Sequence record: NZ_CP014128.2
Length of the DNA: 64,000 nucleotides
Reading direction: 5' to 3' (one strand)
From: a plasmid
In this document: positions 8,803-15,898 of the stretch, one piece after another
How positions within the stretch are numbered: the stretch's first letter is position 1
Layout of the letters: each line of letters starts with the position of its first letter
Translations under genes and position numbers: made by a program
Notes under the pieces: generated by a model
The model's database searches: none
Told to the model about the DNA's origin: nothing
Seen by the model: the letters and a program-made list of their open reading frames with translations, nothing else

Positions 8803-9199
8803 CATGTCAGACGATACCGGTTTCACTCACCTTGCTTGACAGGTACGCTATTGAGTAAAAAGCGTAGATTTTTATCGGCGTTATGCCGGGATGCAGGTCA
8901 TACATCAGCGAGAACCGGGCGTTGCGGACGGGTAGAAAGTCGCATGGCTGTCAGCACTACCCAGACCTTTTGCTGTGGTGCTGGATCAATCTGATAACAG
9001 TGACGATACGCCGCTGGGGCCTTTTGGTCATATTGGCGTAACCTACGGCTGTCGCGAAGAGATAGATGAAAAAGTGGCACTTGCGGGGCGCAAAGGTGTA
9101 TTGCAACGTGATGCGCAGCAATCTGAAATACCCGTTAGTTACTGGGCAATTTTTGGCGATCCTGATGGTAATACGCATGAACTTTCATTTGGTCAGTAG
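8803..9199 (+). pseudogene. Decayed VOC/glyoxalase-family gene. The N-terminus is interrupted by several in-frame stops and only the C-terminal roughly 70 aa frame is open.
   Basis: MSDDTGFTHLA then a stop, and VKSVDFYRRYAGMQVIHQREPGVADG then a stop, in shifting frames. The intact C-terminal part ends ...FGDPDGNTHELSF, which is typical of a VOC C-terminus. Confidence 0.5.
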
Positions 9200-9471
9200 A
9201 ACGTGTTGGAAATCATCACGGCCCGTCAATCCCGGTCTGTTGTGAATAGATAAAATGGCTTAGGTAAGTGAATTAAACCTTTTATCTGCAACGCGATTGC
9301 GCCGAGCATTTCGGTTATTACATTCAGGTTACTATCTGTGCATGATTGTGTATGAAGATGGATAAGCAGCGTATGTACAGGCAGGGGAAGTATGAAATTG
9401 GTGTTTTTTGTCTGTTGCTGATAAAGAACCGCCTGAGCAACGGCAGGCGGTTATCATCCAGGTATCCTGAA

Positions 9472-9873
9472 TTAGATTAGAAAATCGTCCAGCGATTTAC
9501 CTGCATCGATGGCTGATTTAATCGCCGAAGGGGTTCGGCCCTGACCCGTCCACTGCTTAACGTCACCATTTTCGTCAGTGTACTGATATTTAGCCGGACG
9601 TGGTGCGCGTTTTTTTTTCTCTGCTGGCGCAGTCGGGATACCATTTAACAGTTCGTTAGGATCGATGCCTTCCTGCAACAGTAATTCACGATATTTTGCC
9701 AGTTTCTCCGCTTTTTCACGGTTAGCCGCTTCAGAAGCCTGAGCTTCTTCACGTCGCTCACTAACTACAACCGACAGTTTTTCCAGCATTTCTTCCAGGG
9801 CAGCAAGGTCAAGCTCGCGAGCATTTGCGCGGAGGGTACGAATATTATTCAAGCTGTTGAGAGTGTCACTCAT
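9472..9873 (-). CDS. H-NS family nucleoid-associated protein (paralog 2, 133 aa)
   Basis: [20 protein letters not shown]...[13 protein letters not shown], with a very close match to the E. coli H-NS N- and C-termini. Confidence 0.85.
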
Positions 9874-11078
9874 CAAAGTCACCATAGTCATGTTCAGATA
9901 ATAAAAATACAGAGCAGGTTCACGCTGATGCTTTTCGTCGGACCTGCTTTTTTAAAATGCTTACCTTCGAAGAATCATAATACAGAACCAATAGTTCAAC
10001 CTTAACATATTAATCTGTTTCTGATAGAGTTGAAACTCTATTTAACGCATGCTCGTTAAACAAAAGTAAATTTACGCCATTTTTTACTCACTTTTCTCAA
10101 AATGGCAAAACCCGTATCACCTGAAAAACGAGGGATAATTTAGTAGGGCTATGGATTAATCGTGCTGATTTTTCTGCAGTGACAGGGGAGTCGCTTCGCT
10201 ATTTTCATGCTTGTCCTGAGAAAGAGGATAACGACAGCTGCAAAGCTCACACGCAGTTACCGCACAGGCAATGATGCTGTAAGTAATTTCGCTGTAAAGG
10301 CCCTGCTATGAATTATTTCGCTAATTTATTCTCTGAAAAGCTGAATCAGCATCATAGTGGTAAGCTCATGATAATAATTTAGTTTCTCTATAAAGGCCTT
10401 TGTTTTCAGGAACGTCACATAGCGCATAACAACGCTGCAAAAGTCTCTGCCGGTTGGTTTAAATATGCTTGAATTGTGCCATACACTCAAACAACTGGAT
10501 ACGGTTTAAGCAGAATCATCGCCTGCCCGCTGCCATTAGAATGATTACTTATGGTAATAATTACCCTTTGTTCAATCAGTGTCTGCAGCTAATAAACCCA
10601 CGACATACTGTGGATTCAAGCCTGGATGCCATTTTTCTCCAGAATTATTGCTTAAGGCGCATTAAACCCAGCATTGAGTTGCACAACCTCGGCCAGCTTG
10701 ATAAGTGATTTAATAACCACTTCTCATTTCAAGTCCACCACGCAACGTATAGATGAGCTGAGCAATGAATAACCGGCCTGAGGAGTGCGGGTAAGAACGG
10801 TACTGGACTGTTACCTGGTGTAATTAACCCTTTGAATTCTTACTTATACAGGGTTCATTGTCAGGTTTCAGATAGCAACGCAAATTTAGATAGTTGCCAA
10901 TGATAAATTTGCATTATAAATCCGTTCTGGGGGGGTAAGGTCAGGTATCGGTATTACCTGACCTGAACACTGTGAACGTAGATATCGCAAAGATGGGAAG
11001 GAATGACCGCAGGCTAAGCTACACTCAACAACAGATGCGTTAACGTCAGCGCGATGATTACTTCTGCAGAGGTCTGAA

Positions 11079-11264
11079 GTGTTTAAAGGCAATAAAAAGT
11101 CATTACCTGTTCGTTACTGTAAAATTTGTAACAAACCGATGTCATGGCGTAAAAAGTGGGAGAAGTGCTGGAATGAGGTTTTATATTGCTCAGAGCGTTG
11201 CCGGCGTGAGCGTTATGCGCAACATAAAGATGATGCAAAAATAAACGCTGAGCGGAACCAATAA
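11079..11264 (+). CDS. DUF2256-type small zinc-ribbon protein
   Basis: CKICNKPMSWRKKW...VLYCSERCRR pattern: two CxxC pairs and the conserved WRKKW. Confidence 0.5.
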   Translation: MFKGNKKSLPVRYCKICNKPMSWRKKWEKCWNEVLYCSERCRRERYAQHKDDAKINAERNQ

Positions 11265-11308
11265 AACTCACAGGAAAAGTCCAGGTTTTGACTTGGCCTC
11301 ATAGACCG

Positions 11309-13410: not shown

Positions 13411-14020
13411 GATGATCTCTGCCTCTTTCGTTATTAGTCACAACACCATTTTTATAAGTGTCGCAATGCTATAAAAAATAGTTAGCTGCTTGTTCAGATG
13501 TGCGGTCAGTACCTATCGCCACTCCCAATCTCCGTTGCGCCAGAAAGTCCCTCCCTACAACCGGGGCATGTATAGTCAGCATTACAGGTTTGAGTTAACT
13601 AGCTGAAATCAGATATAAAAAAAACCACTCGATAGAGTGGTTATAAACATTACAAAATACTTCATGAGCAAAGCTGCGATACAGAATAATTTAATACTGG
13701 GATATATCTATGCCAGAAAATGATAGCTATCAACATGCAAGTGAGCTAAGTAATTTGTGCGGAAATAGCTAAAGTTTAATTATTATCATTGCTATATTGC
13801 AAAGAGTGTTAAGAAGATTTTTTCAATGATAGGGTTTTAATTTATTGTTATATTTTTTGGTTATTAACATAGATTCAACTTTGATTTTTATTTTGATAGT
13901 TTTATAGTGTGTGCGCCTTACTGATAACATTTTCAAAACACATGCAGACAATAAAGCTTCTTAAGATCCCGTTAAGATCTACGATGTAAATTACCCTGGA
14001 CATTTAACGGAGATAAAAAT

Positions 14021-14401
14021 ATGAAAAAGTTTATGTTAGCGTTGTTATTAGCAGGTATGAGTCTGGGTGTTTCTGCGCAGGAAGGATTTGTTAATCCGGC
14101 AGGGCAGGGTTCTTCACAGGGCGGATTTAAAGGTCCGACACCGGGCGTCGCTTCAGTCGCCCAGGCTAAAACACTGCGGGATGATGCATGGGTTGTTCTG
14201 GAAGGCAATATCATCAGACAGGTTGGGCATGAGCTTTACGAATTCAAAGATAGTACCGGAACCATTTATGTCGATATCGACGATAAGCGCTGGATGGAAC
14301 AATCATTGTCACCCGCTGACAAAGTACGCATTGAAGGTGAAGTCGATAAAGACTGGAACAGCGTTGAAATTGATGTAAAAACGGTTCGTGTTCTGAAGTA
14401 A
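14021..14401 (+). CDS. YgiW/YdeI-family BOF (bacterial OB-fold) stress-induced periplasmic protein
   Basis: Signal peptide, then GGFKGP...VTLEGNIIRQVGHELYEFKDSTGTIYVDIDDKRW, which is characteristic of YgiW/YdeI. Confidence 0.85.
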   Translation: MKKFMLALLLAGMSLGVSAQEGFVNPAGQGSSQGGFKGPTPGVASVAQAKTLRDDAWVVLEGNIIRQVGHELYEFKDSTGTIYVDIDDKRWMEQSLSPADKVRIEGEVDKDWNSVEIDVKTVRVLK

Positions 14402-15120
14402 CCTGTATTTACCACTGATATGGCAGTGACCTGAAGCCGGGCCGCTGCTATTTTTATATGCACGTTCCAGGTTGGGTATTCCAGAGTAAGCAATAAATAT
14501 TCACGAAGCCTGTCCGGCAAGATAGTGATGACAAAAACTTCAAGGCTTAACATCGGATGAGACAGTGCATTCACAACGTATAAAAATGGCGATGAATCAG
14601 TCCTGAAACAGATATAAATTAGTTACAACACACTTTTGTCCGGTCATCTGAACAGGAGATCTTCCTGTGAAATGTGCATGTATTTGGTCAAATCTAGCCG
14701 AGCCGTTCTGAAAATCCGAGTGCTCATTGACAAGCCGCTGGGCACGGCCCGAAGGGCCGTAATAGTTCTTTGCAGCAGAATTGAATGATGTAACTAAAAT
14801 TCTCCTGTTATCTTCTTTTCGGAATTTAAAAATGGGAGACCGTAACGCCTGGAATAAAAGAGAAGCAGATGCTTTGCACCAAAGCTTAGCTCAGGCAGGT
14901 ATGGCTATTATGCGCAATTTCGTTATGACATGTTTGTAATACCTTAACTCCAGGCCGGTCTGTAAACTGAGACATGTTTTACATGACAACCAGCTGGTCT
15001 GATAGTCCTTCACAGGTGAGTATTAAAGATAAAAAAGATTTCTGAATCAGGATAGTTTAAGAAACCTTTTTATCGTTCACAATTACGTCTGGCTAAGTAA
15101 CCGTGTTAACCGCTTCACAC

Positions 15121-15157
15121 TTAACCTCCAGGCGAGTCTGGAGGTTAATATTTTTAT
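15121..15157 (+). terminator. Orphan intrinsic-terminator-like hairpin in an AT-rich non-coding stretch
   Basis: ttaacctccag-gcgagt-ctggaggttaa perfect 11-bp stem followed by tatttttat. There is no convincing CDS upstream. Confidence 0.45.
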
Positions 15158-15424
15158 AATGAACCTATATTTCACTTATTCAATCCGGATGACTTTGATG
15201 TAATAGCGGCATTTTTCCATGTCAGTACTAATAGAACCCCTAAAATATTAATCCTTTTTACGGCAGAAATTTTGCACTCTTGAAAATCATTTACTGATTA
15301 AAAAGTGTATGCCGCCACACCAGAGTTTTAGCAAAGAGATATCAGGAAAGATATTCAGTCTGGCCGGGATAAAGCGGCAGAACCGCATCACTAGCGATAC
15401 CGTCTACTCCGTGTAAAACAGCAA

Positions 15425-15898
15425 TTATAGGATAAAAGAATCCCCTACTTGTGCCCGAACATACCATTCCATTAGTTCCCCAGCACCCGGCTCATTTTCG
15501 GCGGGTGCCCATGGCGCTGAGTCTTGTTCAGTCACAGGCTGGTAACCCCCGTGTTTAACCTCAAAAATAACGCCACCTTTATCCATCGATAACACCGCAT
15601 GGCAGGTGCCTGCTTCCGTCTTCATTGCCTTGCACCCTTCTCCTAACACCACCCGTTGGGTCATATACCCATTTTCATCAAAATGTAATACCTGAAACCG
15701 CCCACAGAGCGAGATCAGCAATTCAAAAGTATGCGGATGCCGGTGAGGGCGGACATAAGTGCCCGGCTCCATAGCGATGGTCAGTCGCTGCACCGGATCG
15801 CTCGATTTAGGGTGTAAATTACGATTGGCTCGCAAGCGAGGGGGATTTCGCAGCCTCCTCGCTGAGTTGCTGGAGGTCAGTACCAGTAATTTGTTTCA
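15425..15898 (-). pseudogene. WbuC-family cupin protein gene with a +1 frameshift in a C5/G5 homopolymer (15840-15844)
   Basis: An ATG at 15898 gives MKQITGTDLQQLSEEAAKSP and then runs out of frame. The 136 aa ORF (LRANRNLHPKSSDPVQRLTIAMEPGTYVRPHRHPHTFE...) continues in the +1 frame. Removing one C restores ...KSPRLRANRNLHP. Confidence 0.55.

Follow-up and report, generated by a model that had tools for sequence, protein, structure and literature searches.

In free-living Enterobacterales, pseudogenes build up in AT-rich DNA that is dispensable and accessory or that was gained by horizontal transfer, a pattern that belongs to the framework of xenogeneic silencing by H-NS, and their occurrence in accessory plasmid DNA is an already known and common phenomenon. 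Here we describe a stretch of 64,000 nucleotides from the plasmid record NZ_CP014128.2 (hereafter, the window), in which an AT-rich segment of about 7 kb (the flagged segment, positions 8803-15898) contains a series of small genes broken by stop codons and frameshifts. The closest described replicons are the plasmids of the pPag1 or "plasmid 3" family (pPag1 of Pantoea vagans C9-1, pVag2 of P. vagans LMG 24199 and p2_CQ10 of P. alfalfae), whose matched members are all of the replicon type rep_cluster_807 and which share with the window 90-96% identity and the synteny of a methyl-accepting chemotaxis gene, feoAB, the sfn/ssu sulfur operons and a formaldehyde dehydrogenase gene. Unlike these relatives, the plasmid of the window harbours an Hrp-1 island together with an additional ABC transporter and further toxin-antitoxin modules, and has lost or broken the genes for VOC, a lipoprotein, YfaZ, WbuC and two hypothetical proteins (hyp93 and hyp97).

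The lesions are real and fixed in a lineage, they differ in their relative ages, and they cluster in AT-rich accessory DNA. The joint reading that we regard as probable is that of a pPag1-type P. vagans plasmid whose flagged, variable segment carries dispensable genes undergoing ordinary neutral decay. A preliminary description, drawn from the letters of the window, had read the same lesions as the ongoing pseudogenisation of a host-restricted lineage.

Judging from sequence matches, the window is part of a ~198-kb P. vagans plasmid of the pPag1 family with an acquired Hrp-1 type III secretion island. Positions 6-20.5 kb are 90-92% identical to rep_cluster_807 plasmids that measure 160-180 kb and come from P. 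vagans and P. alfalfae, positions 20.5-43.3 kb show 95.9% identity to pPag1 of C9-1, and the hrp/dsp cluster has an 88% identical counterpart in P. agglomerans DAPP-PG734, namely the Hrp-1 island of its plasmid P2. Moreover, proteins of the window exactly match the GenBank entries AMG56624, AMG56627 and AMG56630, labelled Pantoea vagans, and the one long contig in which these proteins occur is a 197,944-bp assembly of the read set SRR2822442. Together with the literature, these matches suggest that the source strain is most likely P. vagans FDAARGOS_160, a human-wound isolate (PMC5971314) for which an Hrp-1 secretion system has been reported on a plasmid. An Erwinia origin was also considered, and is ruled out by the identities to Pantoea plasmids and the P. 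vagans protein labels, as well as by the diguanylate cyclase encoded beside the VOC gene, which has only Pantoea as close relatives among the matches listed. The replicon should thus be handled as a pPag1-type plasmid of P. vagans with an Hrp-1 island, and not as an Erwinia chromosome.

Inactivating lesions in the flagged segment

Direct translation of the VOC/glyoxalase gene gives three internal in-frame stops (TGA at 8837-8839, TGA at 8852-8854 and TAG at 8933-8935), in line with the several stops noticed previously, as well as an early terminal TAG at 9197-9199, 18 codons ahead of the ancestral stop at 9251-9253. All these lesions fall within one reading frame, with no frameshift, and alignment with the intact orthologues of 150 amino acids (P. 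alfalfae and Pantoea sp. GD03673) reveals changes of the type TTA to TGA. The gene has fared no better in other Pantoea. The copies of P. vagans C9-1 and LMG 24199 have deletions of 3, 1 and 10 bp in common, and that of LMG 24199 also carries the same second TGA as the window; the copy of Candidatus P. gossypiicola has a TAG and deletions of 3 and 4 bp of its own, and P. anthophila and one related genome are devoid of the gene. The number of lesions, the near-neutral evolution of the sequence (see below) and the independent breakage in sister lineages indicate that VOC has long been dead, so it can be regarded as an old pseudogene that was also broken independently in free-living relatives.

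The lipoprotein gene is interrupted at a single and critical position. Its N-terminal region reads MKPLMLMLFTLCLTG-TGA, and the stop (11564-11566) lies exactly on the cysteine codon of the lipobox, L-T-G-TGA, as had been proposed and as translation confirms. Relatives have TGC or TGT at this codon, the cysteine is kept in six relative loci including C9-1 pPag1, and the orthologues, 100 amino acids long, are 94-95% identical. The product would end ahead of the acylated cysteine, and a functional protein is presumably absent. The neighbouring outer-membrane protein gene, which corresponds to YfaZ, shows by translation and alignment a CAG to TAG change at the expected site (12087-12089), together with a second lesion that had been missed, a stop-loss (TAA to CAA at 11724-11726) adding nine residues. 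YfaZ is intact at 180 amino acids in four relative loci (C9-1 pPag1 among them), with orthologues 97% identical, and of the fragments in the window one would have lost the barrel and the other the signal peptide, so that a functional product is presumably absent. P. anthophila has just a remnant of YfaZ and an intact lipoprotein gene.

The WbuC-family cupin gene has a one-base insertion in a homopolymer, with a C5 run (G5 on the plus strand) at 15840-15844 against C4 in the intact P. alfalfae allele, which bears out the shift previously placed there. Its ATG start codon extends the gene to 15899, and not to 15898 as first delimited. Removal of one C restores a protein of 157 amino acids that matches TIGR04366 from end to end (3e-44) and that, in a protein database search, aligns with homologues of 157 amino acids over 99% of its length; the relatives in that search are cluster representatives with identities of at most 90%. 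The restored VOC protein and both fragments of YfaZ likewise match their proposed families (PF00903 and PF07437, respectively). An exact look-up of the truncated WbuC fragment matched only the strain of the window itself. We also considered that the C5 run might serve phase variation or programmed frameshifting, and rejected this from the sequence: five bases are too few, neither a slippery heptamer nor a stop or rare codon occurs where the frame changes, and four samples share the fixed allele.

Public read-set assemblies can decide between sequencing error and real mutation without raw reads, and they do so here. The Logan assembly of SRR2822442, an FDA-ARGOS "Pantoea agglomerans" read set used as a benchmark for an Illumina assembler (PMC6172800), is 100% identical to positions 4021-24401 of the window, with 0 mismatches in 20,381 bp. 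Contigs from other samples, which are 99.5-99.9% identical to the window and thus derive from different strains, contain the four lesions as well. Contig alignment shows that the stops of VOC, the TGA of the lipoprotein gene, and both the TAG and the stop-loss of YfaZ are common to the window, SRR12733757, SRR11954143 and SRR12733285, and the C5 run of WbuC was found in SRR11954143, SRR12733285 and SRR13574378, in contigs reached via FeoA. The presence of the lesions in independent, non-identical samples argues that all four are real and fixed in a lineage. Most of the single-nucleotide differences between the window and the sibling lineage lie in VOC or between genes, the pattern expected if purifying selection acts on the intact genes only, and the VOC of that lineage has an extra deletion of ~30 bp, which indicates that decay is ongoing.

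An artefact of sequencing or assembly, or else recoding of the lesions by selenocysteine insertion, suppressor readthrough or programmed frameshifting, could be invoked from the homopolymeric nature of the WbuC lesion and from the TGA in place of a cysteine codon, a classic selenocysteine/cysteine relationship. Nevertheless, as the preliminary description had argued, poor sequence quality is not the cause: the Illumina-based assembly shows no difference from the window over the 20,381 bp compared and each lesion occurs in at least three other samples. As for recoding, all three stop codons are found as lesions and all three also end normal genes, an ARAGORN scan of the whole window detected no tRNA gene and hence no suppressor tRNA there, and VOC evolves in a near-neutral way; the C5 run, as stated, is too short for slippage and has neither a stop nor a rare codon at the shift site. 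A SECIS-type element at the lipoprotein TGA was rejected as well, since shuffled sequence folds as well as the RNA downstream of this stop (z = 0.10). We consider any such explanation extremely improbable, and sequencing error and recoding are, on these data, effectively excluded.

The segment itself is near-identical (99.5-100%) in short contigs of several apparently metagenomic samples (the SRR12733xxx series, SRR11954143, SRR13574378, JGI 3300012177 and 3300012085, and ERZ27241825 and ERZ27241827).

Distribution and relative ages of the broken genes

A census of the window, probed with the proteins annotated on C9-1 pPag1, P. alfalfae p2_CQ10 and DAPP-PG734 P2, gave 11 broken genes out of 61: four in the flagged segment, six at 43.5-46.8 kb and one remnant at 593-646. 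Comparison with related strains, which the preliminary description had called for, shows that an intact orthologue of each broken gene exists in one or more relatives. In P. alfalfae p2_CQ10 the whole series of the flagged segment is complete and intact, from VOC (150 amino acids), H-NS, DUF2256, the lipoprotein (100 amino acids) and YfaZ (180 amino acids) to YgdI, DUF1090, YgiW, a hypothetical protein of 93 amino acids, WbuC (157 amino acids) and feoAB.

The second and denser cluster lies at the junction of the plasmid backbone and the secretion island, where all six genes are broken (relB, relE, higA2, higB2, DUF2913 and rpn). Translation corroborates the lesions already listed for three of them: a frameshift near 43809, a TAG at 43836-43838 and a TAA at 43995-43997 in relE, an in-frame TAG at 46447-46449 in rpn, and the A-run frameshift of relB. 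The DUF2913 frameshift and the degraded higBA duplicate come in addition to that list. An intact higBA copy, conserved in many Pantoea contigs, is located at 40971-41554, 3 kb from the degraded one. Overall, the positions given for the lesions in the preliminary description are correct to within one base, as is its statement that feoB, dspE (called as 1865 amino acids) and hrcC are intact; no broken gene was found among the sulfur-metabolism, transport, regulatory and secretion genes of the window.

The enrichment of the flagged segment by itself (4/9 broken genes versus 7/52 elsewhere; Fisher p = 0.047) is weak because of the existence of the second cluster. When both clusters, which were defined post hoc, are taken together, 10 of their 15 genes are broken versus 1 of 46 outside (p = 3e-7), with 45 of the 46 genes beyond these AT-rich clusters being intact. 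The GC content over 9-16 kb is 37-47%, compared with about 55% elsewhere in the window. The pseudogenes are shorter than the intact genes (p = 0.005) and poorer in GC (median 0.49 vs 0.55, p = 1e-4), and all 11 hits fall in genes of at most 950 bp, with a probability of 4e-6 if hits scaled with gene length.

The ratios of nonsynonymous to synonymous substitution (dN/dS, Nei-Gojobori method, against P. alfalfae and C9-1) differ among the broken genes, with values of 0.71 for VOC, 0.35 for WbuC, 0.12-0.20 for the lipoprotein and 0.05-0.06 for YfaZ; those of the intact neighbours range from 0.01 to 0.43 and are mostly ≤0.26. The low values of the lipoprotein and YfaZ are as expected from recent inactivation. 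Thus, VOC appears to have evolved near-neutrally through most of the divergence, WbuC would be of intermediate age, and YfaZ and the lipoprotein seem to have been constrained until recently, their inactivation still predating the split of the window and its sibling lineage at 0.1-0.5% divergence. In addition, the breakage of VOC in several lineages and the YfaZ remnant of P. anthophila suggest a recurrent loss of the same small genes among free-living Pantoea.

The favoured reading would run as follows. The small stress and envelope genes of the flagged accessory segment would be dispensable, and hence shed by neutral decay, having died at differing times while deletion has yet to remove them. 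The lesions are nonsense point mutations, one slip in a short homopolymer, one stop-loss and small deletions, and the excess of nonsense changes is explained by AT-rich codons just one step from a stop (TTA, CAG and TGC). The relaxed selection would come from dispensability and probably from poor expression, for which silencing of the segment by H-NS is a plausible, putative cause because two hns paralogues lie in it.

Several points weigh against this reading. The silencing step is hypothetical. The lineage of the window has five broken backbone genes (VOC, lipoprotein, YfaZ, WbuC and the hyp97 remnant) and, just beyond its left edge, a further loss in the form of an RND-pump remnant, whereas C9-1 and LMG 24199 apparently have one or two, as judged by locus-tag gaps. 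FDAARGOS_160 is also reported to have the most "exclusively absent" genes of six P. vagans strains (111 versus 8-85; PMC9917351). Some lineage-specific acceleration of gene loss may therefore have occurred. Finally, the adjacent YfaZ and lipoprotein genes were knocked out after strong constraint, which may reflect selection for their loss and not drift.

This last point leads to the alternative of adaptive loss, in which YfaZ and the adjacent lipoprotein would have been inactivated for some benefit, such as escape from phages using them as receptors or from host recognition after the gain of the secretion system. Both genes belong to a single same-strand run (YgdI-YfaZ-lipoprotein), each was disabled by a single clean nonsense mutation now fixed in the lineage, and both had been under strong constraint until recently (dN/dS of 0.05 for YfaZ and 0.12-0.20 for the lipoprotein). 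However, the paired knock-outs do not recur elsewhere, given that P. anthophila has a degraded YfaZ and an intact lipoprotein, the YgdI gene of the same run is intact, and the non-envelope neighbours VOC and WbuC have likewise been broken, in keeping with non-specific decay. On balance, adaptive loss seems very unlikely. A related and more elaborate scenario, also improbable in our view, is that of an Hrp-1-bearing sublineage of P. vagans, recurrent in several environmental or host metagenomes, in early niche specialisation, in which the YfaZ and lipoprotein knock-outs would be an adaptive loss of surface antigens or phage receptors, and not the outcome of drift.

The host restriction invoked in the preliminary description would imply genome-wide pseudogenisation in a host-restricted or niche-shifted lineage, where a small effective population lets disabling mutations become fixed in stress and envelope genes. 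The high fraction of pseudogenes in the window (11/61), the excess of broken backbone genes over C9-1 and LMG 24199 with the RND-pump remnant, the acquisition of a type III secretion island, the first place of FDAARGOS_160 among six strains for "exclusively absent" genes (PMC9917351) and the recurrence of the lineage in several metagenome-like samples all agree with such a process. On the other hand, if the window does come from FDAARGOS_160, its genome of 4,808,855 bp with 4335 coding sequences is normal for P. vagans (PMC9917351), the five other strains having 4.60-4.89 Mb (PMC9917351), and the strain is a wound isolate of a generalist plant epiphyte (PMC5971314). Of the genome, the analysis covered the window and about 2 kb of flank. 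Within the window, the lesions are found in AT-rich accessory and junction DNA, with a single remnant among the 46 genes outside the clusters; no insertion sequence was seen in the 64 kb, nor any transposase reading frame apart from the broken Rpn. VOC, moreover, is also dead in the free-living epiphytes C9-1 and LMG 24199, and in Candidatus P. gossypiicola. The earlier interpretation was therefore partly right: the lesions are real and decay continues, as the ~30 bp VOC deletion of the sibling lineage illustrates, but the attribution to host restriction is not supported, with a normal genome size and gene number and a VOC gene dead in free-living relatives. We keep for it a small share of the probability because of the greater number of broken backbone genes than in C9-1 or LMG 24199 and the highest count of "exclusively absent" genes.

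Plasmid structure and surrounding features

The coordinates of the broken genes and of their neighbours are collected in Table 1.

Table 1. Features of the window, ordered by position, with the lesion or match that supports each of them.
Feature	Position	Strand	Lesion, match or comparison
Remnant of 97-amino acid hypothetical gene	593-646	+	first 18 codons only; gene intact in C9-1
H-NS paralogue, second	6501-6899		NCBIfam H-NS/StpA match
VOC/glyoxalase-family pseudogene	8804-9253	+	translation; PF00903 match of restored protein
H-NS paralogue, intact, plasmid-borne	9475-9873	-	NCBIfam H-NS/StpA match
DUF2256 gene, intact	11079-11264	+	
Hypothetical-lipoprotein pseudogene, 100 codons	11611-11309	-	lipobox cysteine codon is TGA
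YfaZ-family outer-membrane-protein pseudogene	12266-11694	-	PF07437 matches on both fragments
YgdI/YgdR lipoprotein, intact	12330-12566	-	NCBIfam NF033216
DUF1090 gene, intact	12946-13365	+	
YgiW/YdeI stress OB-fold gene, intact	14021-14401	+	
650-bp indel junction	15120-15124		93-amino acid hypothetical gene of P. alfalfae and P. vagans LMG 24199 absent here
WbuC-family cupin pseudogene	15899-15425	-	frameshift at C5 run
relB / Phd-YefM-type antitoxin pseudogene	43540-43792	+	frameshift at AAA 43612-43614; weak Pfam match
relE/ParE-family toxin pseudogene	43789-44075	+	PF05016, 2.5e-12
Degraded higB-higA duplicate	44190-44800	-	frameshifts and stops in both genes
DUF2913 pseudogene	44887-45493	+	frameshift near 45360; PF11140; two tblastn segments in different frames
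Rpn (YhgA-like) recombination-promoting nuclease pseudogene	45820-46761	-	PF04754, 1.8e-82

The two plasmid hns paralogues (6501-6899 and 9475-9873) are ~62% identical to each other and bracket the diguanylate cyclase and VOC genes. That at 9475-9873 is 98.5-99% identical to the orthologues of relatives, with a dN/dS of 0.01-0.02. Three AT-rich stretches of the flagged segment (9892-11078, 13366-14020 and 14402-15424) are free of open reading frames (ORFs), with 12-34 stops per frame by eye, and at least the first of them has counterparts of 82-89% in further species of Pantoea, where it is unannotated as well. From this inspection by eye of the stops in six frames, no further recognisable gene remnants are claimed in the gaps. 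An Rfam scan of the whole window at gathering thresholds, ORF-free stretches included, gave no match, and a promoter/terminator scan found no enrichment of promoter-like sites (18 observed versus 15.7 expected).

The interval between YgiW and feoA (14402-16216) behaves as a hot spot of gene presence and absence among relatives: P. alfalfae has both the gene for the 93-amino acid protein and WbuC, LMG 24199 has the former only, C9-1 lacks both, and the window contains just the broken WbuC. Given such variation, the direction of the indel at 15120-15124 is uncertain. A hairpin with a 12-bp stem (15121-15148) is found at the junction.

At the left edge, the RND efflux permease, a protein of 1034 amino acids in C9-1, is reduced to a fragment of residues 820-1002 just left of position 1 (1249-1779 of the contig that covers this flank). 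Together with the gene of 97 amino acids cut down to 18 codons, this remnant implies that losses in the lineage are not confined to small genes. Relatives, in turn, appear to carry their own pseudogenes at loci that are intact in the window: a locus tag is missing at 37450-38854 of C9-1 pPag1, at the place of a binding protein gene and higBA that are intact in the window, and the sigma-54 regulator, intact in the window, is split into two pieces of 213 and 386 amino acids in the Pantoea genome GCA_913773645 (contig positions 7393-9282).

The plasmid is a chimera, with the Hrp-1 island (47037-64000; DspF, DspE, HrpW, a YopJ-family effector, HrpN and HrcC, among others) set on a pPag1-type backbone. 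At the junction of both parts (45820-47036), the ~9 kb that separate Rpn from DspF in DAPP-PG734, which hold an AAA ATPase, Ltp, a nucleotidyltransferase, an integrase, a SIR2 protein and a hypothetical protein, are missing. An ABC transporter of the methionine type (binding protein, permease and ATPase; 31046-33659) lies between an MFS transporter and an LLM oxidoreductase, which are adjacent in C9-1 pPag1, devoid of this transporter.

Comparison with known cases of gene decay

For annotation purposes, the ORF fragments described here merit the label of pseudogenes. A local cluster of broken genes in the AT-rich cargo of a plasmid should not, short of genome-wide counts, be taken as evidence of a lifestyle. 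If the lineage were truly specialising, its dated series of losses, with VOC as an old event and YfaZ, the lipoprotein and WbuC as more recent ones, would offer a small usable record of the earliest steps of the process.

The decay of host-restricted pathogens and symbionts (Erwinia amylovora/E. pyrifoliae, Pantoea stewartii and the insect-symbiont Pantoea) resembles the case of the window in the point mutations and small indels fixed in a lineage, in the stress and envelope functions hit, and in the presence of an hrp/dsp secretion cluster. Unlike those bacteria, the strain of the window shows no genome reduction (4.81 Mb) and no expansion of insertion sequences in the window, its lesions are limited to accessory plasmid DNA, it belongs to the generalist P. 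vagans, and the decay of its VOC gene is common to free-living relatives. Compared with the decay of accessory DNA in free-living Enterobacterales, the density of broken genes is rather high for 64 kb (4/9 in the flagged segment and 6/6 in the second cluster), and silencing is putative. Both cases have several traits in common: small genes in low-GC variable DNA are hit by nonsense, frameshift and deletion lesions, nearby core operons stay intact, the same gene is broken independently in different lineages, and hns paralogues reside in the segment.

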